Of a stretch of 64,000 bases of DNA, positions 23,868-62,315 are shown in pieces. The stretch comes from Naegleria gruberi. Its lineage: Eukaryota. The stretch lies in the NCBI GenBank assembly GCA_000004985.1, contig GG738858.1; one strand, 5' to 3'. Each line of letters opens with the position of its first letter. The stretch's first letter is position 1. The translations under genes and the position numbers were made by a program. The notes under the pieces were generated by a model. It ran no database searches and was not told the origin of the DNA. It was given only the letters and a program-made list of their open reading frames with translations.

Positions 23868-26240
23868 ATGAGTGGCAATCCTTTTAACTTGTTGAGTATT
23901 TCTATTGCGGAATTTGATAAACTAAGTGGAAATAGTTTAACTCACACATACCCGACAGATGTTCACTTGGAAAAGTATTACCCTACCAGTAATATTGCTG
24001 ATAAATGTATTCCTGATGGAGCTCATATTTACCATGAAGATCAAACCGGAATAATATTACCAATAACCGAGGATAACACAGAATTAATTCAAGTGCTTCA
24101 CAAGTACATTTCTTCCTTTAAATTCACAACTTCACCTACACCACCCAAACCAATACCATCATCACCATCATCTAATATACCAAATAATAATGATAATGGT
24201 TTTCAAAATTCACAATACTTATATGGAAGTGTTTTCTTCAGGAACAAACTTGATGACAGAGTGCGAAGAGGAGCAATTCAAAAGAGTATTCTTGTTGTAA
24301 CAACAAAGCCACTCTTCACTCTCTTTATTCCTCTTATGAGGGATGCAATTGATAGGTTAGTATATTCATACATTGTTCAATGTTCATCATTTGATTAGAA
24401 TTATAAGTATTGAGGAAGCACACATAGAGAAATCTGAAAAGGAAGTAAGGGAAGTTTGCCGAGATCAAGTTACACTAGTGTTAAAAGATCTTTATGATAG
24501 CTTAAAGGAATCTATAGATGTTGCCTCAATGAACGCAACAAGAAAATTATCGATATCCTTCTCCGATAAGATTTATAATTTAAAAGTACCAAAGTAAGTT
24601 TATTTTAATATTTCCTTGTTAACACAGGAACTAGATGTAAAGAAGAGAATTTTAATGGTGCTTCTCTGATAGACCTTTTAACAATATTTGAAAAACACAT
24701 TTGTTATATTTGGGAAGCATTGCTCTTCTCGCGAAGAATTGTATTTGTAGGATCGCCAGCTAAAGTTGTGACGATGTGCTGTCTCTCTTGTCCTTTATTA
24801 ATTTCTCCTCTTAAAGGAATAACCAATAGGTAAGTTTTTGATTATTTTAAATGTGGAAACGAATTATATTTTAGGATTTCGCCCTATGTGACTATTGGAG
24901 ATCAAAAATTGAGTGAACATGTCTATGTGTGTGGAATGACTAATCCATTACTAGAAAATTCTAAATATGGATGGGATTACTATGCCAGTATTGCTGCTGG
25001 TAAAGTACAATACAAAAGACAAAAAATCTCATTAATTTCAAAATCAGATTTTAAAGATTTTATCAAACAAGTACTTTCTGGAATTAAAAAAGGAAAAAAG
25101 GAAAATTGGGTTCGTGAACAATTCACACAATTCAATTTAAATTTCCTCAAACACGTTCCAAACTCTAAGAAGAAAAGTATCACTCAAAATTTTATTCATA
25201 GTCATGTATATAAGAGATTTTGTAGTACAAATGTGTTGTCTAGCTCTCCACCCTCTCCAATTGCAGATAACACTCTTTCGGTGGGCAGTGTTAGATTTCC
25301 AAAGATTTCATTTGAGGGCTCTGACTCTCCTTTAAGAATATTCCCTCCAAAACTTGTGAAAAGCAAACATTCACAAAGTTATAGTGGTGAATTGAGATTA
25401 TCACCCAAAAAAACACCCACTTCTATTAAGAGTATATACAGGAAGCTTAACCCATTCATTTCATCCAAAAATGAATCACAATTTTCTCAAAAGGATCTCA
25501 TTTCTCAAGTCGTATCTGATGGAGAACTGGAGTTCCTTTGGCCATATATAATGCCTAACAGTGAATCCATGTTAGATTGGACTGTAACAGGGCATGTTAC
25601 ATTGTACAAAATGACATTATGTATCAAAGATGGTTTAAATACCTTTTATTCAAGACATAGTGGACCTTTGAGCCACAAATATGAAAAAGTGCTAGCAAAT
25701 ATTCATTTCATATTAGGAAAACTTTTTAAAGAAAACGAAGAAGTAATTTATTCACAGGAACAACTTGCTTATTTGGATAGAAAATCACTCGATGAAAAGG
25801 AAAAAATACTGAATGAACAAACAGCTAAAAACAAGAGAGATAGTTCATTCCTACATATCAAATTGCAAAAACCATTAGAACAAGAATATATGGTGATCAA
25901 CTCAGAAGTTAAGCAAACATCTCAAAGATCTTTGTTTGTACATAAGGTTGTTCGTCTTCAACTTGATTCTAACAAGCAATATACCTTTTTGGAGAACCCA
26001 GAATATTTTGTTTACGTTGTGAATCGAGTTAGTGAAGAACAAACTGAGCTCACACAAGTTCATGTAATAAGAGCAACTAATCTTAGTGAAAAACGAGACA
26101 AGTATACATACTTTAGTTCAGCTTTAGAAACTAGAAAATTACTAATCGAAAGATTGGATAAAGATGCAACAGATTATAGCAACATTGTAGTGAGTGATTC
26201 AGATTCGAGTGAGGATGAGGATTTAGGATCAAGTGAATAA
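23868..26240 (+). CDS. DENND6/FAM116-type DENN-domain protein; exons approx 23868..24354, 24398..24593, ~24627..24820, 24875..26240
   Basis: YLYGSVFFRNKLDDRVRRGAIQKSILVVTTKPLFTLFIPLMRDAI matches DENND6A [44 protein letters not shown]. ...IFEKHICYIWEALLFSRRIVFVGSPAKVVTMCCLSCPLLISPLK and ISPYVTIGDQKL...VCGMTNPLL also match. Introns of 43 and 54 nt are verified. The exon 2/3 junction cannot be made in frame with canonical sites. Confidence 0.6.
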
Positions 26241-38370: not shown

Positions 38371-41300
38371 TTATTGAATCTTGTTGGTGACAATGAATTT
38401 GAATAAATCGCTGGCAAATGATTCGAAATGAGAACCAAAATCAATGACTTCTCTATATTCCTCTTCCAATTGTTCCAAATTATTCATGAGCATCATGTAA
38501 TTATTGTTACAGAGACGTGCAAGTTTTACAATGTGAACCATATTGTGCACATTGACAAATTCATCATTAGTAATGAGGAAAGGATACTTTTCTCTGATAA
38601 TTTGAAGGAATGGCAATGATTTGGCAATTAATTTGCTTTCACTTTCCTTTTCCTTCTTGAGAGTGTCTTCGTGTTGATCGACGTAGTGTTTCTCTGCTCT
38701 CCAAACTGGGAAACCACTCTTGAATTCTTTTGGTTCGAGTCCTCGTTCAACTTCATAAACTACAACTGATCTTGGGAATCGTGGAATTTCAGGAGCTGTT
38801 TCTTCACCTTCATACTTGTTAAGAGATTGAATGGTCTTGTTGTTAATTTCGAGTTCTTCTTCGGTTGGTTCTTCACCTTCTTGTGGTTTTGATTTTTCGT
38901 CTTCTTCAATTTCTTCATTCAAATCTTCTTGTAAAAGTGTGGCAACACCCTTGAGAACTAGTTGTCTCAAGGCAGTAGATGGAGTACATGGATACCAAAT
39001 AAAGATAACCTCAGAATAGTCGACAATCAAGATTTGATGTGAATTATTCAAATCTTGTTGTAAGAATTGTTGACCAACTTCACCAACACTCATTAATCTG
39101 AATTCATTATTTTGAATAATGGAACATTCCATGACTATACCTCTTGGATAGTTCAATCTTTCAGTAACATAATCAACATATTGATTATCGGATTCAGGGA
39201 ACAATTCCCAGAATTCTTCTGGTTCGAAACCTTCATCAATGGCAGAGACATCTCTGTTTCCAATTAAAGATTGGGCAAGTTTGAAGGCAATTTCCTTCTT
39301 CTTACCACTCGAGTAAATACCAACCCACAAATAGGCAGTTCTCAAGCCCAACAAGATATAGACATCATTTGAATTCAAATTGGTTCTCTTCTTTTCAACT
39401 TGAATGGCCTTTGAATTTCTAACAGTCTTACAATAGATTCTGTAGAGGGCAGAAACTGAACGCTTATTAGACATAGAACCATTGTGAATGGTCATGATAT
39501 GTTCAAAGATCTTCATAAAGTGATCGTTTTCTTTACCTTCCTTTTGAGTAACAATCTTAGCTGGATTGATTGGATCAGAGGCAAAGTTTTGGAAGTTTCT
39601 CTTCAAAATACGAGCACTGACAACTTGCTTACTTTCAGAACCTTCCCAACAATAGAGAATTCTTCTTGGAAGATAGAAAATCTTCTTCTTCTTAATATTG
39701 AGTGGTTTAACAATGAGTTGTTCCTCTTGTTCTTCTTGTTCTTCTGGTTCTTCTTGCTTCTTAATTTCATACTTTTTCTTTGGAACAACAACAGGTGCTT
39801 CAGCTTCAGAAACCTTAACACCCATACCATCAATGAGTTTCATTCTAGCTTCCAATGAATCGGAATCATCAGATTCATATCCCTTATATTTAGGTTCTGG
39901 ATAGTAATCATCTTCTGGTACTTCTTCTTCAGGTGGGGCTTCTCCTTCCTCTTCTTCATCTTCATCAGCGAATTGATCAGAACGATTCCATTCATAGAGA
40001 ATCAAGTAACAATCTTCAGAGTAAAAGTTACCCAATTCTTCTTCTGGAACTGGTTCAGCATAGTTGGCATCGACAACTCTCCAAATTTGAACAGTACCTG
40101 TACCTTCATCATCAGGATCAACATAATCCAATTTTTCCTTATAATCAAAGTCTTCAACCTTGATATCAATTTCTTGCTTATCAAATTCATCATCACAAAT
40201 TGTTGCCAATTCTCTTCTCTTCTTTTCATAAATTTCTGGGGTATCATACAAGTAGAAACCAAGTAAGAATCTCTCTCTGAATAAAACAGGTTCAGAATCA
40301 GAGAAACAACTGTGAGTTTCAAAAATATCAGGTGTGGATTCTTGAATGGTTTTAGCCAAAGCTTCACCACACTTTCTATCAACATATTTGGATTTCTTAC
40401 CAAACCATATATAAAGTTCACTCTTTGTTTCCAACAAGTAAACCTTTTCTTCGTCCAACATGTCACGTTTCAATTCACCAGCAGCAACTTTGGCAATATC
40501 ATACTTTTTATCTTCGACTGAGAGAACAGAAACACTGAAAAGGGTTGCAGCATCTTGTGAAGCATCAGTCTTTTCATGAACAATACCATATTCAGTGAAA
40601 GTTTGAATAATATCAGGATATTCAGATTCTTGACCTTGTGAAATAATTTTAACTTCACCTTTTCCTTTTCTATCATCGTGAATAATGTTACGAGCAACAT
40701 CGACACCTTTCAATTGTTCAAGCTTACTTGCTTCACTTCCAATCCAAACATAGACATTTTCTTCATTTTCAATAATAAAAACATCCTTATTGGATGATTC
40801 TGATTGAATTTCCTTGAGTGAAAGTGGAACTCTCTTTACAAGTAAACGACGTTTGTGATCGGCATCAACTTTCATTAAACGTGGTTTGAAAGCAGGTTTT
40901 GTAACTTTGAGCAAAGTTTCTTCAGTTGTGTTCATATCTCTATATTCAATGTGATGATCAAAATATTCGAGGAAATCCTCAGATTCATCTCTTTCTTCTT
41001 CTCTATAGAGAGAAGCTTTAATTCTCTTTGCCAATTCATCAGCCAAGAAGGCACAAACAGCTTGTTTCATAGTATTGGCATTCTTACCAATCCAATAGTG
41101 AATCCTCTTTAAACGATGTTCATCATCTTGAGCTTCAAAAGCATAAACACAAATATAACAATCAGATGAATTGAATTTTCCATGTTCTTCTTCAGGTACT
41201 TGAATTGGAATCATTTTCACAAGATGATAAATAGTTAAACCAGCACTTTCACCTGCACCCTCAAATAATTCATCCTGATTCAAGATAATATCTGGAGTTT

Positions 41301-41715
41301 CCAATGCTTTATCTAAATCCATCTTTTCTGCAACATCATCAACCAAAATTGATACACGTGAGTGCATTTCCTTTATCGAACGCATCACACGAATGGCTGT
41401 GGAAAATTTAGTAGCAGCTGGTTTCTCTTCAGAAGAAGAAGAAGTTTCTTTACCAGCAAATGTACTCATTGATTTCTTCAAATTTTTCATGGCTCCTCCA
41501 AAAAGTTGTTTTCTAGCTGCTGATCGATTGACAAGAGGTGAAGTGGTTGAAGTGGCAGCTGCAGCTGTGGCGACCACTTGAGGTGATTTATCATTTGTTG
41601 TTGGTTTCTCTTCTTCATCATCTGATGAGGAAGGGTTATTGTTATCTGTTTCTTCCTCATCACCTCCGTAGATGGCTGCCAATCTTTTACGTTCAAGTTC
41701 TTGTACGGATGACAT
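38371..41715 (-). CDS. gelsolin-repeat (villin/gelsolin-family) actin-binding protein with acidic inserts
   Basis: Several gelsolin segments are present: SDCYICVY...IHYWIGKNA, EKVYLLETKSELYIWFGKKS and TVQIWRV...YSEDCYLILY. The first ATG (MSSVQELERK) is at 41715; the ORF-track start 41775 is a GTG. Confidence 0.7.
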   Translation of the reverse strand: MSSVQELERKRLAAIYGGDEEETDNNNPSSSDDEEEKPTTNDKSPQVVATAAAATSTTSPLVNRSAARKQLFGGAMKNLKKSMSTFAGKETSSSSEEKPAATKFSTAIRVMRSIKEMHSRVSILVDDVAEKMDLDKALETPDIILNQDELFEGAGESAGLTIYHLVKMIPIQVPEEEHGKFNSSDCYICVYAFEAQDDEHRLKRIHYWIGKNANTMKQAVCAFLADELAKRIKASLYREEERDESEDFLEYFDHHIEYRDMNTTEETLLKVTKPAFKPRLMKVDADHKRRLLVKRVPLSLKEIQSESSNKDVFIIENEENVYVWIGSEASKLEQLKGVDVARNIIHDDRKGKGEVKIISQGQESEYPDIIQTFTEYGIVHEKTDASQDAATLFSVSVLSVEDKKYDIAKVAAGELKRDMLDEEKVYLLETKSELYIWFGKKSKYVDRKCGEALAKTIQESTPDIFETHSCFSDSEPVLFRERFLLGFYLYDTPEIYEKKRRELATICDDEFDKQEIDIKVEDFDYKEKLDYVDPDDEGTGTVQIWRVVDANYAEPVPEEELGNFYSEDCYLILYEWNRSDQFADEDEEEEGEAPPEEEVPEDDYYPEPKYKGYESDDSDSLEARMKLIDGMGVKVSEAEAPVVVPKKKYEIKKQEEPEEQEEQEEQLIVKPLNIKKKKIFYLPRRILYCWEGSESKQVVSARILKRNFQNFASDPINPAKIVTQKEGKENDHFMKIFEHIMTIHNGSMSNKRSVSALYRIYCKTVRNSKAIQVEKKRTNLNSNDVYILLGLRTAYLWVGIYSSGKKKEIAFKLAQSLIGNRDVSAIDEGFEPEEFWELFPESDNQYVDYVTERLNYPRGIVMECSIIQNNEFRLMSVGEVGQQFLQQDLNNSHQILIVDYSEVIFIWYPCTPSTALRQLVLKGVATLLQEDLNEEIEEDEKSKPQEGEEPTEEELEINNKTIQSLNKYEGEETAPEIPRFPRSVVVYEVERGLEPKEFKSGFPVWRAEKHYVDQHEDTLKKEKESESKLIAKSLPFLQIIREKYPFLITNDEFVNVHNMVHIVKLARLCNNNYMMLMNNLEQLEEEYREVIDFGSHFESFASDLFKFIVTNKIQ

Positions 41716-41891
41716 TTGGTTTGATGACTTTTTTTTGTGATTGTGATGGACAGTTGATTGGAGAAACCCAAGCACAGCAGTGAAGATGTTGAAACAGAAG
41801 GGTTAATTGACTGAAGAAACTCAAGTGAAAGTATTAGAAACATGTCAAATACAAATTTTAATGGATTAGTAAGGGTGTTCAAAATTTCTTC

Positions 41892-51537: not shown

Positions 51538-53166
51538 CTAATTTGATGTTCTCAATTTAAAATCACTAAAGTCAATACCCATAACACTATATCTAATCTT
51601 CTTAATGGTATCTTGATCTTTTGCTCCGTTAAGTGAGAAGAAACAATTATCCCTCAATCGACCATTCTCCTCAATTACTTCAACCTCTGTATCGCCAATC
51701 ACAACAAATGATCTGTCGAATGCTTTCAATAGCCAAAAATCTTGATTACCTTCAACAGTTTTGAAATATTCGAGTGAGTCGATAAAATTGCAAAATATGT
51801 TGAGTGATTTTCTATTCTTAAAAGTAGAGGAGTTCTTGTTGGTGTAATCATTGGAAATATTAGTCTTACTAATCATATCTCTCAAAATTTCAGAGAAATA
51901 GAATGTTCGGTCAACTTTTCCATTCCTTAAATTATCAAAATACTTGTCAAAGCATTCACTCTTTGGAAGTTGCAAATTCAAAGCAGATAGTACCTCAGAT
52001 GTGAAATGTTGGCAATTGGCTTTGAATTGGTGATATTGAACTGATCCATTATATTTACAAATAATTTCAGTCAACTTTCTAAATGTTTGCTTAACATTCT
52101 CAGCACCACGTATTTCTCCAATGTCAATTGCTGCAATTGTCTTGTCAGATTTGATTTGTTGAATAGAGTCACTCCTTACAATAACAGTTGATGAGTTGAA
52201 CCATTCAATCTTCCATTCACCAATTAAAAGGCCAGTATGAACAATTCCCATATCAGCATTTGAAAAGTAGCTCATTAACTTGGTCATAAAAGGACTATTA
52301 CCTAAATCAGAAATCAACAACTTGACTCGCAGAAATGGTTCACAATTAAGCTTCTTTGAATTTTGCTTAACAATAGAACTCATAAATTCCCTATTCAATA
52401 ATCTATCTTCACACACCAAGTTTTGAGCATCCACTTCCAAATCGCCTGTCATTCTAGCATCTTTGGGAGTTCTATTATTCTTTCTCAAGAAATCATAATA
52501 TTTCTCTAACTTTTTCTTGGCCATTCCAACTCGATCCTTTTCTAAAAGAGTTAATCTGTTTGCACTATATTGGACATCGGTTGTGGTTGGGTACGCAGTA
52601 GCATCAATAATAGCAGGTGTTGGAGAAATACTTGGCTTTGAGAAAAGTGTTTCATTGATTGATTCAAAAGTTTTGTTGGGTTTGTTCACTGGGTTGACAG
52701 AGGTAGAATTCTGGCCAGCTTGACCATCTGATTCCAAAGTATCTTCCGAGACATTTAGTACTAATCTATTCGAATCATCTTCAAACTTGACTCTTCCACT
52801 CTTTTCATCATCAATTTTCTTCTTCATGATAACTTGTTCCAAAAACACAATTGCAGAAATATTATCAATCTTGTACTTGGACATCTTTTGTTGCAACAGT
52901 TCCTTTTCTTGTTGAATTTTGGCATAATTAGTTTCCTTTGCCAACCCTTCGAATAACTTTCCATTAAAATCATTGTTCATTGTTACAGCATTTATGACAG
53001 TATCGTTCTTGAAATTGTAATGAATACATAAACAAAACAAGTCCCTATTGCTACATTCTCGAAGAGGTTTTGCCTCTGCCTCTTCAATCTCATCACTGGG
53101 TGGACTGATTTCTTCAGAGAATCTAATAATACTTGACGTGTTGCCCATTTTTTTAAATTGTATCAT
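51538..53166 (-). CDS. PPPDE/DeSI-type (Peptidase_C97) cysteine peptidase domain protein with ~170-aa conserved C-terminal extension
   Basis: The His motif is VHTGLLIGEWKIEW and the Cys motif is KANCQHFTSEVLSALNLQLP, matching DeSI-1 WHTGIVVH and [21 protein letters not shown]. A second ATG (MGNTSS, 53148) is a possible myristoylated start. Confidence 0.6.
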   Translation of the reverse strand: MIQFKKMGNTSSIIRFSEEISPPSDEIEEAEAKPLRECSNRDLFCLCIHYNFKNDTVINAVTMNNDFNGKLFEGLAKETNYAKIQQEKELLQQKMSKYKIDNISAIVFLEQVIMKKKIDDEKSGRVKFEDDSNRLVLNVSEDTLESDGQAGQNSTSVNPVNKPNKTFESINETLFSKPSISPTPAIIDATAYPTTTDVQYSANRLTLLEKDRVGMAKKKLEKYYDFLRKNNRTPKDARMTGDLEVDAQNLVCEDRLLNREFMSSIVKQNSKKLNCEPFLRVKLLISDLGNSPFMTKLMSYFSNADMGIVHTGLLIGEWKIEWFNSSTVIVRSDSIQQIKSDKTIAAIDIGEIRGAENVKQTFRKLTEIICKYNGSVQYHQFKANCQHFTSEVLSALNLQLPKSECFDKYFDNLRNGKVDRTFYFSEILRDMISKTNISNDYTNKNSSTFKNRKSLNIFCNFIDSLEYFKTVEGNQDFWLLKAFDRSFVVIGDTEVEVIEENGRLRDNCFFSLNGAKDQDTIKKIRYSVMGIDFSDFKLRTSN

Positions 53167-53317
53167 GTATTTTGATCATCTGCTGTCTTTTTCACGTTTT
53201 GGAAACGTGATCGGACCTTTTGAAGCATTGTAATGAACAATTTTGTCTGATAAGAAGAAAATTCCAATCGAGAAGTTTGGGACTCAATTCTTTAATGGCA
53301 TGGTTAAGTAATTGAAT

Positions 53318-53322
53318 AAAAA
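53318..53322 (-). terminator. pol III T5 terminator immediately 3' of the 5S gene
   Basis: AAAAA on +, that is TTTTT on the gene strand, directly after the 5S 3' end. Confidence 0.6.
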
Positions 53323-53440
53323 GACTACAGCACCACAGGTTCCCAAGTTGTCTCCAACCTCAGTACTGATGTGGCTCGACGATGCTTAACTTCTCAAATC
53401 GGACGGGATGAGGTGCATTCATCGTGATATGGCCGTAGCC
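53323..53440 (-). rRNA. 5S ribosomal RNA, 118 nt
   Basis: The minus-strand sequence is GGCTACGGCCATATCACGATGAATGCACCTCATCCCGTCCGATTTGAGAAGTTAAGCATCGTCGAGCCACATCAGTACTGAGGTTGGAGACAACTTGGGAACCTGTGGTGCTGTAGTC. The universal eukaryotic 5S blocks are present, and helix I closes with 9 bp. It is followed by T5. Confidence 0.85.
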
Positions 53441-53553
53441 ATTCACATTCTTAAAAAGTTATTCATAAACAACTACCTTAATGATTAAATTAAGAAATTG
53501 GTTAAATCAATGCAAAAGGAATATAAGTTGAAAACGATTTCAATTGTTAATTT

Positions 53554-53599
53554 GGACGGGAAGCCTGCCAGGAATATGGCGACAATCCCGCTACAGTCT
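53554..53599 (-). pseudogene. degenerate 5S-like remnant upstream of the 5S gene
   Basis: The minus-strand GACTGTAGC-GGGATTGTC-GCCATAT-TCCTGGCAGGC-TTCCCGTCCA resembles a 5S 3' end (GCTGTAG) abutting a 5S 5' portion (GCCATAT..TCCCGTCCGA). Confidence 0.35.
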
Positions 53600-54187
53600 T
53601 TGACTGTATGAACAGTGAAGTCAAGAGTTCTTGGACGAATCTTGTTTGTTCAGGTTATTGAAGAAAGTAAAAAGGTCGATCACTCTTCTACTTATTGATC
53701 ATTTGATATGATGAATTGTTCCATGAAAATTGTTGAATTAAATAGAGGTCACTATTTTCCCTTCCATTTATATATTCTTCATCATGATCCTTAATAAAAT
53801 CTATTAAACCGTCACGAATGTTTAAAAATACATCTGCCTCATACCATGATAAGCAAATATTTCCATGTTGTTTTTCAATATAATATGATATTTGATTTGA
53901 AATTATTTCAAATTGATAAAGAAATACAAGCATATCAATATTTTAATCTTTAACTTGACATGATAAAATAGACTTGTTAAAAAAATCAAATCATATATTG
54001 GCGAAGGTTCTTCCTCATCAATATATTTTATTAACAAAGATTCAACTTTAATTTGTAATATTGTAAGTCTTATCACCTTAATATCTGAATGAGAAATATT
54101 ATTATCTATAACAAATTCTTAATACAATTATTCTTTTATCACCAAAGTAATTGAGCAATTGTTGAAAGAGTAAATAACAATCATTTA

Positions 54188-54670
54188 TTACCTCTTTAAT
54201 ACACAATCACTGAAATCAACATCTTTAACACTGTACTTGATATGAGTGATGGAATCTTGATCTCTTCCTCCATTAGTTGTGAAGAATCCATTCTCTTTGA
54301 CTCCTGTAGAATCAAAAGTAAGACAAATTTCATCCTCCCCAACCAAAACAAATGACCTATCAAATGCCTTCAAAAGCCAAAAATCACTTTGACCTGCCTC
54401 AATGTCAAAATATTTGATATGTTCAAGAAAATGACAAAATTCATCCAATGATTTTCTATTCTCGAATCTAATGTTCTTCAAACCAATATAAGGGTTTGTA
54501 ATGTTGCATGTTTTAAATAATGTTGCCAAATTTTCATTCACAAAGAAAGTTCTGTCAGTTTCTCCTCTTTTCAATTTGTCAAAATAAATTTTGAAAGATT
54601 CACTCACTGGAAGTGTCAAATTCAATGCCTCTAATAAATCTGAAACGAAATGTTGGCAATTAGCCCCCAA
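54188..54670 (-). pseudogene. N-terminally truncated paralogue of the PPPDE-domain gene (Cys-motif half plus conserved C-terminal extension only)
   Basis: ANCQHFVSDLLEALNLTLP...FWLLKAFDRSFV...IKYSVKDVDFSD aligns along the last ~160 aa of 51538..53166. An in-frame TAA lies directly upstream, and no plausible intron is found. Confidence 0.5.
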
Positions 54671-54782
54671 TAATGAATAATCTTAGTAATACCGTTTCAG
54701 TTTTACCTAGTTGTAATAAACACCGGAAATTTATTTATGATTTTAACAATAAAAGCTGAAAGTAGTTAAATGATGATATTTG

Positions 54783-54962: not shown

Positions 54963-55067
54963 ATGTTCTTATCGAAGTTTACTGAGATAAAGTAGTGTTT
55001 CTTGAAAACAACAATTGAATAAACTAATAATAGAAAGTATGCTCAAAAAAATTGTCATACTATGGTC
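54963..55067 (+). repeat. split direct repeat A1 (105 bp; contains gag ATG at 55062)
   Basis: Identical copy at 58999..59103. Confidence 0.85.
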
Positions 55068-56189
55068 GCTAAGAAGCCTCAAGATATTGACTCCTCTTCA
55101 TCTGATGAAGATCTCCCAGCAGTTGAAGTAGAATACCCCACAACACCAGTGAAAGCAAGAAAACAACAAGCTGCTAAGAAGCTTAGAAAGTTAAAGGCCA
55201 TGTCACCTGTAGCTAATAGAAATAAGCGCAAACAATCTACTTCAGTTTCATCATCTAACAGTGCCTTAGATGATGGTATTTCAACTGTTGTTTCCAGTTC
55301 GTTGCTAAGCAATTCAACTTTGTTGGATAGTTCTTCAACTGCACCCTCTTCGTCAAACAATTCGTCTTCTTCCAATTCAGGTAGAGATAGTTTTGCCAGT
55401 AGTTCATCTGAACATGATATCATGGCGATCAAAGCCCAAATGCAAGAAATGATTGGAGTTTTGAGAACCGTAACAGGAAATATCTCTGAACTTACTAAGA
55501 AAGTTCAGGAGAGAGAAGAAGAATCAGATGATGATTTTGTTAATCCAGAAGCTATATCTCCAGAAGTTTGGTTACGTCAAACTTATAGAGACCTTAGAAG
55601 TTCTTACAATGTTCCTTCATCTATTGGAGATGATTTATTACTTTCTGCAGTATCCTCCGAGATACTTAAAGACCGTAAACAAGAGGAGACCAAGAGAAGA
55701 ATTCAATATTTGCTCCTTAAATACAAGGATGTGATTTCCAAGTTTGCCCCAGACATTAGATTGGATGAGATTAACAGTATTGGTTATTCTAAACTAGTAG
55801 AGTTAACTCAAATCAAAATTGAATTGTTGGAATATGCATTGAATTCTCCACTTGATTTTACAGTCATGACAGAGATTACAGAACTTTGTAGAATGATTTG
55901 CAAAGTTGAAGCCCTCTTCCTTAAAGAAGGTTTACAAGTTTCCACTTTCGATGTTGGTAGAGAATTCCTTAACAGATACATTTCTACTAATAGTTTCGAA
56001 ACTGCTGCCGAAAGTGAACTTCATAATATTAGAACAACATATCATTACTACAAAGCAACCAAGCAGCAACAAGGTCCAAAGGGAATTACCAAGAAGTATT
56101 CTAAGAAGAAACCGTTTCAAAAGAAAAACAATAAGGGTCAAGGAAACGGTGGTAAATTCCAAGGAAAAGATAAGGATAAGTCAGAATGA
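55062..56189 (+). CDS. retroelement ORF1, gag-like (S-rich N-terminus, basic KKNNKGQGNGGKFQGKDKDK tail)
   Basis: The first ORF after A1 starts on the ATG inside the repeat. It overlaps the pol frame by ~280 nt. Confidence 0.65.
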   Translation: MVAKKPQDIDSSSSDEDLPAVEVEYPTTPVKARKQQAAKKLRKLKAMSPVANRNKRKQSTSVSSSNSALDDGISTVVSSSLLSNSTLLDSSSTAPSSSNNSSSSNSGRDSFASSSSEHDIMAIKAQMQEMIGVLRTVTGNISELTKKVQEREEESDDDFVNPEAISPEVWLRQTYRDLRSSYNVPSSIGDDLLLSAVSSEILKDRKQEETKRRIQYLLLKYKDVISKFAPDIRLDEINSIGYSKLVELTQIKIELLEYALNSPLDFTVMTEITELCRMICKVEALFLKEGLQVSTFDVGREFLNRYISTNSFETAAESELHNIRTTYHYYKATKQQQGPKGITKKYSKKKPFQKKNNKGQGNGGKFQGKDKDKSE

Positions 56190-58062
56190 CTCTTCCACTC
56201 CCTCCTTCCAAGGAGGAAGATTACAACAGTTTTGGAAAAAGTGGCAAATCTTCCCCAAAACTGTTGCAGAATGGATAAGAGAGGGTATTCCAATCCATTC
56301 AGAAAAAGAAAAATGGATCGATATTCCACTAAGATCTCATTTTTCAGAAAAGGAAGATTCATGGTTAAAGAGCGAAATCTCAGATTTACTCAAAACCAAT
56401 ATTATAGAAATTGGAAACAAGGACACTGTCATAAATCCGATTCACGTGGTTCCGAAGAAAGGCAAAGACCAGTTTCGTCTAATCCTAGATTTGAGATCCA
56501 TAAATGCTGGTATAAACAACGACTCATTCAAAATGGATCATATTCACAAAACTCTAAAGTTTCTATCAAAAGACATGTTAGGAATCAAAATAGATTTGAT
56601 GAAAGGTTATCATCACGTTCCAGTGAAGGAAACAGATCGAAAGTTATTGGGATTCAGGTACAACGGCCAGATTTACCATTACAAGTGCCTACCATTCGGT
56701 CTGAACATTGCTCCAAGATTATTCTCCAAGATAATGAAGGTCTTAGTTCAAAGATGGAGAGTAAGAGGAATCTCGGTATTCATTTATTTAGACGATATCT
56801 TAGTGGTAAATCATTCAAAAGATCAGTTGATCTTAGACAGAGATATAGTTCTAAAGGATTTAGAAGAGTTTGGATTCCTCATTCAAAAAGACAAATGTTG
56901 TTTAAATCCAACTCAATTAATAGAATACCTAGGAGTTTTGTTAGACTTTCATCAAGGTTTGGTAAAAATTCCAGAAGACAAAAGGATTACAGCTTTAGAA
57001 TTCATAGAGGAGCTACTCAATGCTTCCCAGAAACGGCTTTATGTTCCATGCAAGAGAGTTGCCAAGTTCCTAGGAAAGTTGGAATTTCTAACAATTGCCA
57101 ACAAGTACCTTTCACCATTCATGTGTCGTCTTCGAAAGAACATGGTTTCAGTAGTATCAGGAAGAGGTTGGCACGCATCAATGCAAATTCACAAAGGCGC
57201 ATTCAAGGATTTATTGATTCTAAGGGAGTTAATTCAAAAGAACGATGGTCATCCGTTCGAATTGGATTGGATTCTCCCAGTGATTGTGAATTCAGATGCA
57301 ACACCTCAAGGTTTCGGCATTCACTCAGGTTCAATCGTTACTGTTGGAAAGTTCAATGGAGAAGAGCACATCAATGTCAAGGAACTAAGAGCCTTACTGC
57401 TTTATTTCAAACAAGCAGACGAATTAAATCTTTATCCAGATTTCACAAATTTCGAATTGAGAGTAGACAACATGGTAGCCGTGGCATATCTAAAGAAGGG
57501 TTATGGATCAAAAGACGATCTCGCAAAGATAGCAAGAGACATCTCAAAGATTCTAATGAGAAGAAATTGGTGGATTTGCAAAGTGATTTACATCCCATCC
57601 AAACAGAATTTCCTAGCAGACAGGTTGAGTCGATTGATGGATTGGGGATCCACCAAGGAACTAATCGAATTAGTCAACCAAGAATTTGGAATACACCATG
57701 TGGACAGATTTGCAACAACGAGTTCGGCAACTACCCTTGTATTCAATTCATGGAAAGAGAACGACGCGTTCAAAAGTCTTTGGGAAAAAGAACTAGTGAG
57801 TTATTGTGTTCCTCCAATAGGATTGATCAGTCAAGCTCTCATTCATCTTATCAAATCCAGATCAATAGCGACATTTGTAATTCCAGAATGGAGCTCCTCG
57901 ATTTGGTGGCCTCTACTCTTAAAGCTATTAAAGAAGAGAAAAAGTATCACAAGAAGGATGCTTTTAATCAAACTATTATCCGAATTATGGATCAAATTCG
58001 AAGGAACGACGTTCATAATTGCTCATCTGGATGGAAACTTATACTTCAAACCAGAGATTTAG
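55906..58062 (+). CDS. retroelement ORF2, reverse transcriptase/RNase H (pol)
   Basis: The RT motifs are LDLRSIN, FGLNIAPRLF and VFIYLDDILVV. The RNase H end reads IPSKQNFLADRLSR. The frame overlaps the end of gag, so the true pol start is probably upstream of the first ATG, via frameshift. Confidence 0.75.
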   Translation: MKPSSLKKVYKFPLSMLVENSLTDTFLLIVSKLLPKVNFIILEQHIITTKQPSSNKVQRELPRSILRRNRFKRKTIRVKETVVNSKEKIRISQNDSSTPSFQGGRLQQFWKKWQIFPKTVAEWIREGIPIHSEKEKWIDIPLRSHFSEKEDSWLKSEISDLLKTNIIEIGNKDTVINPIHVVPKKGKDQFRLILDLRSINAGINNDSFKMDHIHKTLKFLSKDMLGIKIDLMKGYHHVPVKETDRKLLGFRYNGQIYHYKCLPFGLNIAPRLFSKIMKVLVQRWRVRGISVFIYLDDILVVNHSKDQLILDRDIVLKDLEEFGFLIQKDKCCLNPTQLIEYLGVLLDFHQGLVKIPEDKRITALEFIEELLNASQKRLYVPCKRVAKFLGKLEFLTIANKYLSPFMCRLRKNMVSVVSGRGWHASMQIHKGAFKDLLILRELIQKNDGHPFELDWILPVIVNSDATPQGFGIHSGSIVTVGKFNGEEHINVKELRALLLYFKQADELNLYPDFTNFELRVDNMVAVAYLKKGYGSKDDLAKIARDISKILMRRNWWICKVIYIPSKQNFLADRLSRLMDWGSTKELIELVNQEFGIHHVDRFATTSSATTLVFNSWKENDAFKSLWEKELVSYCVPPIGLISQALIHLIKSRSIATFVIPEWSSSIWWPLLLKLLKKRKSITRRMLLIKLLSELWIKFEGTTFIIAHLDGNLYFKPEI

Positions 58063-58967
58063 GGATGTTGGTTTCGATTAAGGAAGAAACCTTCAAACTT
58101 TACACTAGAAACTATAATGGTTTCTTATGGTTTATTACTGCATTCAATATTTCAATGGATGACCCTTATGCTATTGAGTATTATGCAGCTTATCTTACAA
58201 TTCAAGGTCAAACATCTCGTGTTGAAGCCTTGAGACCATCCCTTCAATTTTGGGCCAATATTGAGAGAAGAGTTTTTCCAATTTCATGGTCTTATGATAA
58301 GATTAAAAGAGGAATTACTCTTATTTGGTCCTTGATTGATAGAAAAGCTTTGAAACGTGATCCAATTTTCTATCATCATATTGAAGGTTTCATTCAGAGA
58401 AAAGATCATTATGATCCTTTCATTTTCAAACTCACTAGTGCCATGTTAGTCATTGGTTTCAGACTTTTCGCTAGACCAGGTGAATTAGCTAGACTCAAGT
58501 GGGGTTATGTTACAAAGCTTAGAAATGGTAACATCAAATTAGATCTCAGTGGTCACAAAACAGATTTCTTTCTACTAGAAAAGCCGATTACTATTGACAA
58601 GCATCTTGAAAATCCTTCAGTGTGTCCAGTGAAATTGCTTTTTGATTACATAGACACTGTACAGCATTTCAAAAAAGCAGATTCACCATTGTTTTCATTG
58701 CAGGACAATATTTTCTTCAACACTGAAGATGTTTCTCAACTTATCAAGAATGCTATGTTCTCTGTTGATTCAGAAATCACTGTTTCTGGTCACAGTTTAC
58801 GTATTGGTGCAACTACTGAGAGTATTATCAAGGGAATTCCTACTCAGGATATTATTATGGGGACTAGACATAAGGATGTGAAATCTTTACAACCTTATCA
58901 AAGACAAGAAGCTCTTGCAGCTCGCCACTTGTCTACTACTCTCCTTTCTCGGGACAATATCCATTAG
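56232..58967 (+). CDS. retroelement ORF3: 911-codon frame overlapping pol, C-terminal 300 aa (58065..58967) is the tyrosine recombinase
   Basis: The YR box I/II reads ARPGELARLKWGYV...GHKTD...HSLRIGATTE...GTRHKDVKSLQPYQR. The upstream ~610 codons are a basic R/S/K-rich frame with no stop, although they overlap pol in AT-rich DNA. Confidence 0.6.
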   Translation: MEKVANLPQNCCRMDKRGYSNPFRKRKMDRYSTKISFFRKGRFMVKERNLRFTQNQYYRNWKQGHCHKSDSRGSEERQRPVSSNPRFEIHKCWYKQRLIQNGSYSQNSKVSIKRHVRNQNRFDERLSSRSSEGNRSKVIGIQVQRPDLPLQVPTIRSEHCSKIILQDNEGLSSKMESKRNLGIHLFRRYLSGKSFKRSVDLRQRYSSKGFRRVWIPHSKRQMLFKSNSINRIPRSFVRLSSRFGKNSRRQKDYSFRIHRGATQCFPETALCSMQESCQVPRKVGISNNCQQVPFTIHVSSSKEHGFSSIRKRLARINANSQRRIQGFIDSKGVNSKERWSSVRIGLDSPSDCEFRCNTSRFRHSLRFNRYCWKVQWRRAHQCQGTKSLTALFQTSRRIKSLSRFHKFRIESRQHGSRGISKEGLWIKRRSRKDSKRHLKDSNEKKLVDLQSDLHPIQTEFPSRQVESIDGLGIHQGTNRISQPRIWNTPCGQICNNEFGNYPCIQFMERERRVQKSLGKRTSELLCSSNRIDQSSSHSSYQIQINSDICNSRMELLDLVASTLKAIKEEKKYHKKDAFNQTIIRIMDQIRRNDVHNCSSGWKLILQTRDLGMLVSIKEETFKLYTRNYNGFLWFITAFNISMDDPYAIEYYAAYLTIQGQTSRVEALRPSLQFWANIERRVFPISWSYDKIKRGITLIWSLIDRKALKRDPIFYHHIEGFIQRKDHYDPFIFKLTSAMLVIGFRLFARPGELARLKWGYVTKLRNGNIKLDLSGHKTDFFLLEKPITIDKHLENPSVCPVKLLFDYIDTVQHFKKADSPLFSLQDNIFFNTEDVSQLIKNAMFSVDSEITVSGHSLRIGATTESIIKGIPTQDIIMGTRHKDVKSLQPYQRQEALAARHLSTTLLSRDNIH

Positions 58968-59000
58968 TTTATTTATTGTTGGTTTTCTTTTAAGAAACAT
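58957..59000 (+). repeat. split direct repeat B1 (44 bp)
   Basis: Identical copy at 59778..59821. Confidence 0.8.
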
Positions 59001-59103
59001 GTTCTTATCGAAGTTTACTGAGATAAAGTAGTGTTTCTTGAAAACAACAATTGAATAAACTAATAATAGAAAGTATGCTCAAAAAAATTGTCATACTATG
59101 GTC
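58999..59103 (+). repeat. split direct repeat A2
   Basis: Identical to A1. Confidence 0.85.
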
Positions 59104-59777
59104 CCACCCTTGCCCACCCTCTATTATTATTAGTTTATTCAAATCAAAGGTTCTAACCTTTGTCCTTAATACTTTGGAATGTGATTTTTTAACCAATCCT
59201 CAAATATTTTCTCAATTGATTGAAAGATTTCACTCTATTTGTATTATTGAAAGATGATTGTTATCATCTTTTTATCTTTGTATTATTATTTGATATTTGA
59301 CATCATTTATTGATGTTTTTTATCATGATTGGTGATCTAAAACCAATTGTTGGTGATCTAAAACCGACAGATCAACTTTATGTTGATTAGAAGGTATCTG
59401 ATACCTTTCCCTTACTATTAGTAAGGCAATATGTACTGAACATACCTCTTTTCTCATTCTCGTTTTGATTCGTAAGTGTCAAGACGGTTGAGTAGGTTTT
59501 TTAATTCTTAACTTTTTAGTTTTTACCGATTTTTTTTTTTTTTCCTACAAGAGTAGGTTTTTTTATATGGGAGTTGTTTCTCCAAAAAACAACTTGGTTT
59601 ATTGTCAGATTGCTTTAATTTAGTTTAGTTTTTGCTTTTTGTTAAGAAATCATAGTATGATTGTATTGATTAGTTTATTTAATTTCTGGACCTGCTGAAT
59701 AAAGCTTAATGCCTAAAAACAGCAGTAACCAGGCTACAAACTACCTAAGAATAGGTAGAAGTTGTAGTGTGAGCTTT

Positions 59778-59821
59778 ATATCCATTAGTTTATTTATTGT
59801 TGGTTTTCTTTTAAGAAACAT
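59778..59821 (+). repeat. split direct repeat B2
   Basis: Identical to B1. Confidence 0.8.
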
Positions 59822-61839: not shown

Positions 61840-61928
61840 AGGGTGGTACGTGGATCGAACACGTGACCATCGGATGTCTCCTGCAATTAACTTTGCAATC
61901 CGGTGCTCTACCGCTGAGCTAACCGCCC
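61840..61928 (-). tRNA. tRNA-Cys (anticodon GCA) with 17-nt intron after position 37
   Basis: The minus-strand sequence is GGGCGGT-TA-GCTC-AGCGGTA-GAGC-A-CCGGA-TTGCAA[AGTTAATTGCAGGAGAC]A-TCCGA-TGGTC-ACGTG-TTCGATC-CACGT-ACCACCC-T. The intron contains AATTGCA complementary to the anticodon loop. There are C4-A69 and C27-A43 mismatches. Confidence 0.7.
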
Positions 61929-62242: not shown

Positions 62243-62315
62243 CTCCCCCTGGTGGGCTCGAACCACCGACCTGCAGATTAACAGTCTGACGCTCTACCGA
62301 CTGAGCTAAGGGGGA
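62243..62315 (-). tRNA. tRNA-Asn (anticodon GTT), 73 nt
   Basis: The minus-strand sequence is TCCCCCT-TA-GCTC-AGTCGGTA-GAGC-G-TCAGA-CTGTTAA-TCTGC-AGGTC-GGTGG-TTCGAGC-CCACC-AGGGGGA-G. A T6 run lies directly downstream on the gene strand. Confidence 0.85.

Follow-up and report, generated by a model that had tools for sequence, protein, structure and literature searches.

A probable member of the dispersed nuclear family of 5S rRNA genes in Naegleria gruberi, located in a compact, recently rearranged intergenic region

5S rRNA genes in Naegleria and in other organisms

Solitary 5S rRNA genes are found in large numbers among the RNA polymerase II genes of Neurospora crassa and Schizosaccharomyces pombe, where each copy has unique flanks and homology is confined to the transcribed region. 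These dispersed fungal genes may serve as an analogy for Naegleria, which belongs to another lineage and would differ in promoter architecture and copy number.

The closest described system is that of N. gruberi itself. For the JGI assembly of this organism 279 putative 5S genes have been listed, unlinked to the rDNA unit and distributed over many scaffolds (PMC3369914, PLoS One 2012, Tables 1 and S1). The genes have ICR-like interior sequences together with an upstream TATA box, and both TFIIIB and TFIIIC could be identified in the organism, but no TFIIIA (PMC3369914). In Table S1 of the same paper the entries cover scores of scaffolds; judged by eye, most are separated by tens to hundreds of kb, and roughly a dozen pairs are spaced at 1.5-5 kb. 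The authors term this arrangement 'tandem', whereas their coordinates, again by eye, describe mostly solitary copies (PMC3369914).

The large rRNAs of Naegleria are encoded elsewhere. The closed circular extrachromosomal rDNA element (CERE) is a circle of ~14 kb, present in thousands of copies, with one 18S-5.8S-28S unit, and no 5S gene is reported on it (PMC5805870). A different arrangement is seen in Dictyostelium discoideum, where the 5S gene is located on the 88-kb extrachromosomal rDNA palindrome (PMC5391098), as an earlier note on the present DNA had correctly stated. Both organisms are amoeboid protists with extrachromosomal rDNA and a 5S gene transcribed by RNA polymerase III. However, the 5S gene of D. 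discoideum sits on the palindrome whereas those of Naegleria are chromosomal and multi-copy, and the two lineages are unrelated (Amoebozoa against Heterolobosea/Discoba).

The 5S rRNA gene in its genomic setting

We analyzed one stretch of 64 kb, referred to below as the window. The features of the 5S gene in it are as follows.

53323-53440, minus strand: body of the 5S rRNA gene, 118 nt (the Rfam span adds the first T of the terminator)
53318-53322, minus strand: T5 run as read from the sequence, abutting the gene body directly; presumed RNA polymerase III terminator
53459-53469, minus strand: TATA-like A/T-rich element TTTATGAATAA at -29 to -19; putative upstream promoter element

A complete 118-nt gene on the minus strand, ending in a T5 terminator, had been claimed from the letters alone, and the covariance model scan fully agrees. 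With cmscan the Rfam model RF00001 (5S_rRNA) matches 53322-53440 (-) at 105.4 bits, far above the gathering score of 38 (E = 4.4e-22), and TTTTT is present at 53318-53322. The alignment runs over model positions 1-120, which is the full length, and zero non-canonical pairs are flagged. In the minimum free energy (MFE) structure predicted by RNAfold the canonical three-way junction is formed with helices I-V intact. We also built a custom Naegleria 5S covariance model (R1) from two Naegleria-type 5S sequences and ran it over the whole window with filters off and E<=10; it scores the gene at 148.4 bits. According to both the Rfam and the Naegleria-specific model the 64-kb window holds one 5S copy.

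Inside the gene, GTTAAGC agrees by eye with box A as given in PMC3369914. Two mismatches to the pattern of that paper occur in the box C region, and these are mutually paired in helix IV (U-A for G-C). RNA polymerase III would transcribe the gene from about 53440 on the minus strand, as expected from general knowledge of 5S genes and from PMC3369914. The internal box A/IE/box C-like sequences would direct transcription through TFIIIC and TFIIIB, possibly helped by the TATA-like element near -29 to -19, and transcription would end at the T5 run at 53318-53322.

Two metagenome contigs allow a comparison with other copies. The first, L002, is a JGI metagenome contig of 1964 bp and the sole match in a metagenome scan with a Naegleria-specific 22-mer from 5S helix IV/V; the same 22-mer had no match in the viral contigs or genome contigs scanned. 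Its 5S gene scores 106.3 bits and differs from the window gene at 1 of 119 positions, with T4 where the window gene has T5. The flanks of the two loci are unrelated: similarity begins at +1 and ends at the T-run. Upstream they have only one feature in common, a motif that is A/T-rich and resembles TTAT(A)GAAT(T)AAC: L002 carries TTATAGAATTAAC at -23 to -11, similar to the window element listed above. A divergently oriented ORF starts ~190 nt from the L002 gene, which suggests that the gene-dense context is general. The second contig, L003, comes from ENA metagenome data and was reached via an 81-aa ORF in the window (53688-53933). Positions 1345-2093 of L003 align to window 54078-53329 with an identity of about 97-98.4%, and the 5S sequences are identical over the 112 nt that L003 covers.

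The 5S gene is flanked by protein-coding sequence on both sides.

51538-53166, minus strand: PPPDE-like gene (542-aa ORF), downstream neighbour of the 5S gene; PF05903 match below threshold
54188-54682, minus strand: truncated PPPDE paralogue, C-terminal fragment (160-aa ORF at 54188-54670), upstream neighbour; located by tblastn with P0002

The position that the earlier note had assigned to the gene, between a PPPDE-domain gene and its truncated paralogue, is thereby confirmed. For the 542-aa ORF the PF05903 (PPPDE) match reaches 24.8 bits against a cutoff of 29.2, and its homologues are named or annotated as PPPDE. The annotated N. gruberi gene model P0001 begins at an ATG at 53148 and is spliced on to C2-domain exons. 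Residues 1-466 of P0001 are 100% identical to window 53148-51751; its overall identity of 87% to the window ORF is due to the spliced gene model alone. From the T-run of the 5S gene to the annotated ATG of the PPPDE-like gene the distance is 174 nt, on one strand. On the other side, the 160-aa fragment (54191-54682) is 98.8% identical to amino acids 730-893 of P0002, which are its last 164 residues (tblastn). The N-terminal two thirds of the domain of this truncated paralogue were not found in the window when P0002 was used as tblastn query.

P0002 is an N. gruberi protein of 893 aa on a 10-kb contig and represents a fused gene model of kinase, PPPDE and PPPDE. The PPPDE gene of the window matches the middle part of P0002 at 78% identity, and the truncated fragment, as stated, matches its end at 98.8%. 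From these matches, either the PPPDE paralogues make up a duplicated region of variable structure or the 10-kb contig is an alternative haplotype.

The 100% identity to P0001 shows that the window is N. gruberi nuclear DNA. The dictyostelid-like host that had been deduced from GGTTGGAGACAAC is therefore wrong, since the DNA belongs to Naegleria gruberi (Heterolobosea). The claim that the 5S gene is chromosomal and located among protein-coding genes did prove right: P0001 is recorded on a contig of 782,252 bp, and Rfam models for 18S, 5.8S and 28S found none of these genes in the 64 kb, either at gathering thresholds or at E<=1. Besides protein-coding genes the window contains 3 tRNA genes and a retroelement, at a GC content of about 33%. 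One tRNA, at 61840-61928 (-), was missed by ARAGORN and scores 50.4 bits with Rfam; its anticodon-loop region contains, after UUGCA, an insert of ~19 nt, and it is apparently an intron-containing tRNA-Cys(GCA). A tRNA-Asn(GTT) lies at 62243-62315, 315 nt from this candidate and on the same strand.

Could the contig instead be an extrachromosomal rDNA element? That Naegleria possesses a high-copy rDNA circle is the one point in favor, and set against the content of the window the idea is practically out of the question. The CERE measures ~14 kb and carries 18S, 5.8S and 28S, whereas the window extends over 64 kb without large rRNA genes, contains many protein-coding genes and includes P0001, which is placed on the 782-kb contig. 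An element of either known type, the Naegleria CERE or the Dictyostelium palindrome, is refuted by this content. The window gene and the CERE thus belong to one organism in which the circle supplies the other rRNAs and this 5S gene resides on a nuclear scaffold. The CERE papers (PMC5805870, PMC10586121) sometimes say loosely that no rRNA genes are nuclear, which is untrue for 5S according to the window and PMC3369914.

Compared with the N. gruberi 5S family of PMC3369914 we see no material difference: the window gene shares with it the length of ~118 nt, the T-run end and the lack of linkage to rDNA, and the window has one copy in 64 kb; an ICR-like interior and an upstream TATA-like element are described for the family in that paper. 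We are therefore confident that it is an intact, solitary nuclear 5S gene of the described dispersed family. The assignment is by family and not by a row of Table S1, and 'solitary with unique flanks' refers to the window, to L002 and to the published table of coordinates. That the 5S gene might belong to a repeated or mobile unit was also considered and rejected, as within the window the intergenic sequence occurs once. The normal, documented state of 5S genes in N. gruberi is a chromosomal position among protein-coding genes. The earlier note had considered such a copy notable if the lineage were related to Dictyostelium; with Naegleria as host, where dispersed nuclear 5S genes are already catalogued (PMC3369914) and 279 of them are on record, that argument does not apply.

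Rearrangement around the locus

The 5S gene sits in a compact, recently rearranged intergenic region, which also contains the truncated PPPDE paralogue, an aldo-keto reductase relic and a retroelement of DIRS/PAT-like type. The relic forms the edge of the sequence shared with L003.

54048-54078, minus strand: aldo-keto reductase relic, consisting of the last ~9 codons and the stop; edge of the L003-shared block 53329-54078

Upstream of the shared block, L003 contains at 84-1375 a complete multi-exon aldo-keto reductase gene (four ORF segments). The full gene in L003 and the relic in the window together indicate that in the sequenced strain the aldo-keto reductase was replaced by the PPPDE fragment. 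When the last exon of the aldo-keto reductase gene in L003 was used as query, no close homologue was returned besides the protein of L003 itself. The block common to both sequences was also considered as a mobile unit; this was rejected in favor of a locus that is allelic or orthologous, with the end of the aldo-keto reductase gene as its left edge.

Between the relic and the GC-rich segment discussed in the next section lies the 81-aa ORF (53688-53933, minus strand). Its copy in L003 is 94% identical, with 5 non-synonymous and 3 synonymous differences, and this copy is its sole homologue in 5.8 billion proteins. On both grounds, the 5:3 ratio and the restriction to L003, a constrained gene is probably to be rejected here.

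Beyond the PPPDE fragment a DIRS/PAT-like tyrosine-recombinase retroelement occupies 54963-59821 (+), starting ~1.5 kb from the 5S gene. Its ORFs are gag-like (55062-56189), reverse transcriptase (55906-58062) and tyrosine recombinase (56232-58967); the reverse transcriptase ORF also gives a weak Dam-methyltransferase-like match. The element has split direct repeats, of which A1 (54963-55067) equals A2 (58999-59103) over 105 nt at 100%, and B1 (58957-59000) equals B2 (59778-59821) over 44 nt at 100%. Such perfect repeats suggest that the insertion is young.

In surroundings of this kind the 5S copy might look intact and nonetheless be a silent pseudogene. The truncated PPPDE paralogue, the aldo-keto reductase relic and the DIRS/PAT-like element ~1.5 kb away show a clearly rearranged neighborhood, and a family of about 279 copies could include inactive ones. 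The gene itself, however, argues otherwise: every helix pairs, disruptive changes are absent, the sequence equals that of L003 and is 1 nt off that of L002, and both the T-run and the A/T-rich upstream element are present. We consider silence of this copy improbable and retain the reading as an intact member of the dispersed family.

In a second species of the genus, the N. lovaniensis locus with the PPPDE homologue (L001, 21.5 kb) is without a 5S gene, so positional conservation at that distance is unsupported.

The GC-rich segment and spacer upstream of the gene

The sequence immediately upstream of the 5S gene contains two overlapping features.

53441-53689, minus strand: 249-nt spacer upstream of the 5S gene, with 0 differences to L003
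53556-53608, minus strand: GC-rich double hairpin (hairpin 1 at 53592-53608, hairpin 2 at 53556-53591), ~115 nt upstream of the 5S gene

In this segment the earlier note had proposed a ~46-nt decayed 5S remnant, ~110 bp upstream of the gene, in which a 5S 3' end would be fused to a 5' portion like a collapsed tandem-repeat junction. The words on which this was based do exist: CTGTAG, GCCATAT and TCCCGTCC (6, 7 and 8 nt) are collinear within 53551-53598 (-), in the orientation of the gene. Nonetheless, they occur at chance-level P and find no covariance-model match, and the junction likewise is without statistical or covariance-model support.

How strong the resemblance appears depends on the alignment. 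A strict BLAST-like alignment to a head-to-tail 5S dimer consists of one 8-mer and falls at the 90th percentile of 71-nt window tiles, whereas a permissive gapped alignment chains the three words and falls in the top 1-5% of such tiles. When composition is controlled, using either shuffles of the segment or natural tiles with matching GC, four scoring schemes yield P values of 0.17, 0.08-0.09, 0.016-0.029 and 0.09-0.10 (overall range 0.016-0.19). Allowing for the choice of scoring scheme and neighborhood, none of these is significant. No Rfam match to a partial 5S is present at E<=10 over 53000-54000 (1 kb), and the Naegleria-specific model (whole window, filters off, E<=10) reports nothing at the segment and four chance sites elsewhere. 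Upstream of the L002 5S gene nothing comparable to the supposed remnant or to the hairpin is found. Moreover, the segment folds with GCCAUAU and UCCCGUC as strands of stems, whereas in 5S both belong to loops A and C, so that their structural contexts are unrelated.

Most likely, judging from the sequence, the segment is not a 5S relic. A genuine decayed 5S fragment at 53551-53598, perhaps a very old one, left where a tandem pair once collapsed, would account for three collinear, gene-oriented words, for the best permissive result (top 1%, P = 0.016-0.029) and for a GC island resembling that of the 5S gene itself; partial or low-similarity 5S entries and loosely linked pairs 1.5-5 kb apart are moreover on record in Table S1 (PMC3369914). 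We nevertheless regard it as very unlikely. With the three other scoring schemes P rises to 0.08-0.19, and under strict scoring one 8-mer is left. The value of 0.016 is itself lost when scheme and neighborhood are considered. The segment is absent from the Rfam output at E<=10 and is outscored by four random sites in the Naegleria-specific model, the spacing between the words is off from 5S by 6 nt, and the words occupy stems of an unrelated fold.

The fold itself is more pronounced. The double hairpin has an MFE of -25.4 kcal/mol (z = -5.66), a stability reached by 0 of 200 shuffles, and the MFE structure makes up 61% of the ensemble. On the plus strand it is weaker (-22.0, z = -3.0) because two of the stems use G-U pairs. 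The segment has 54% GC within a spacer of 18-30% GC, and T4 runs follow it on its own strand. Across 12,788 tiles of 68 nt, covering both strands of the window, 4 fold below -25.4 kcal/mol, namely the tRNA-Arg, both strands of a retroelement hairpin and one spot in a long ORF; over the element itself the best two tiles are both at -25.4 kcal/mol. Further stable folds in the window were noted at 41520-41645 (+), inside the long ORF 38371-41775 (z = -4.9), at 56195-56275 (-), in the retroelement near the gag/RT overlap (z = -4.9), and at 24130-24225 (-), where a 20-bp perfect hairpin lies in repetitive coding-like sequence (z = -4.1).

The spacer around the hairpin is also unusual in its comparison with L003. 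Whereas 12 differences are counted in the adjoining 389 nt (54078-53690, 3.1%), the 249-nt spacer has 0 (Fisher p = 0.0045). The switch is sharp, with the last difference at 53691, one base before the stop of the 81-aa ORF. For the 68-nt element alone the probability of 0 differences is 0.12. Constraint, a conversion tract or a mosaic of haplotypes could each account for the invariance. Together, a stable hairpin and an invariant spacer may indicate something beyond neutral spacer, and the account of an ordinary 5S gene leaves them unexplained.

One explanation would be that the double hairpin, possibly with the whole 249-nt spacer, is functional, be it as a structured small RNA, as a 3'-end or terminator element of an upstream transcript, or as an extended 5S control region. 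Such a role would agree with the low z-score, the dominance of one structure in the ensemble and the advantage of the minus strand through G-U pairs, as well as with a stability that ranks about third among window loci, after the tRNA-Arg and the hairpin of the DIRS-like element. The T4 runs 3' of the hairpin and the contrast of 0/249 with 12/389 differences point in the same direction. On the other hand, the comparator is a single, nearly identical contig (n=1, L003), against which the 68-nt element alone gives P = 0.12, and an equal pattern would arise from a mosaic of haplotype blocks, some identical and others diverged. In addition, z values of -4 to -5 occur in coding sequence and in the retroelement of the window as well, no Rfam family is matched, and the hairpin has neither a counterpart upstream of the L002 5S gene nor a second copy in the window. 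Taken together we think a functional role unlikely.

As to particular RNA classes, a tRNA, an H/ACA RNA and an SL-like RNA were considered and rejected, since ARAGORN and Rfam return nothing at the site and no box or Sm-site pattern is convincing by eye. Small-RNA genes can be linked to 5S genes in Euglenozoa, which are the sister group of Heterolobosea, as is the case for SL RNA; a small RNA encoded by the hairpin would resemble this linkage loosely. That the double hairpin in its invariant spacer is an unrecognised structured small RNA or a locus-specific control element ~115 nt upstream of the 5S gene is, in our estimate, distinctly doubtful. Proof that the hairpin is transcribed as an RNA or acts as a control element would lend it modest interest.

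Summarizing, the value of these results is in part corrective: the window is Naegleria and not dictyostelid, and 53551-53598 should not be annotated as a 5S pseudogene. For the organism itself the picture is that published since 2012, in which the 5S genes of Naegleria are nuclear and scattered among protein-coding genes and the large rRNAs are encoded on an extrachromosomal circle.
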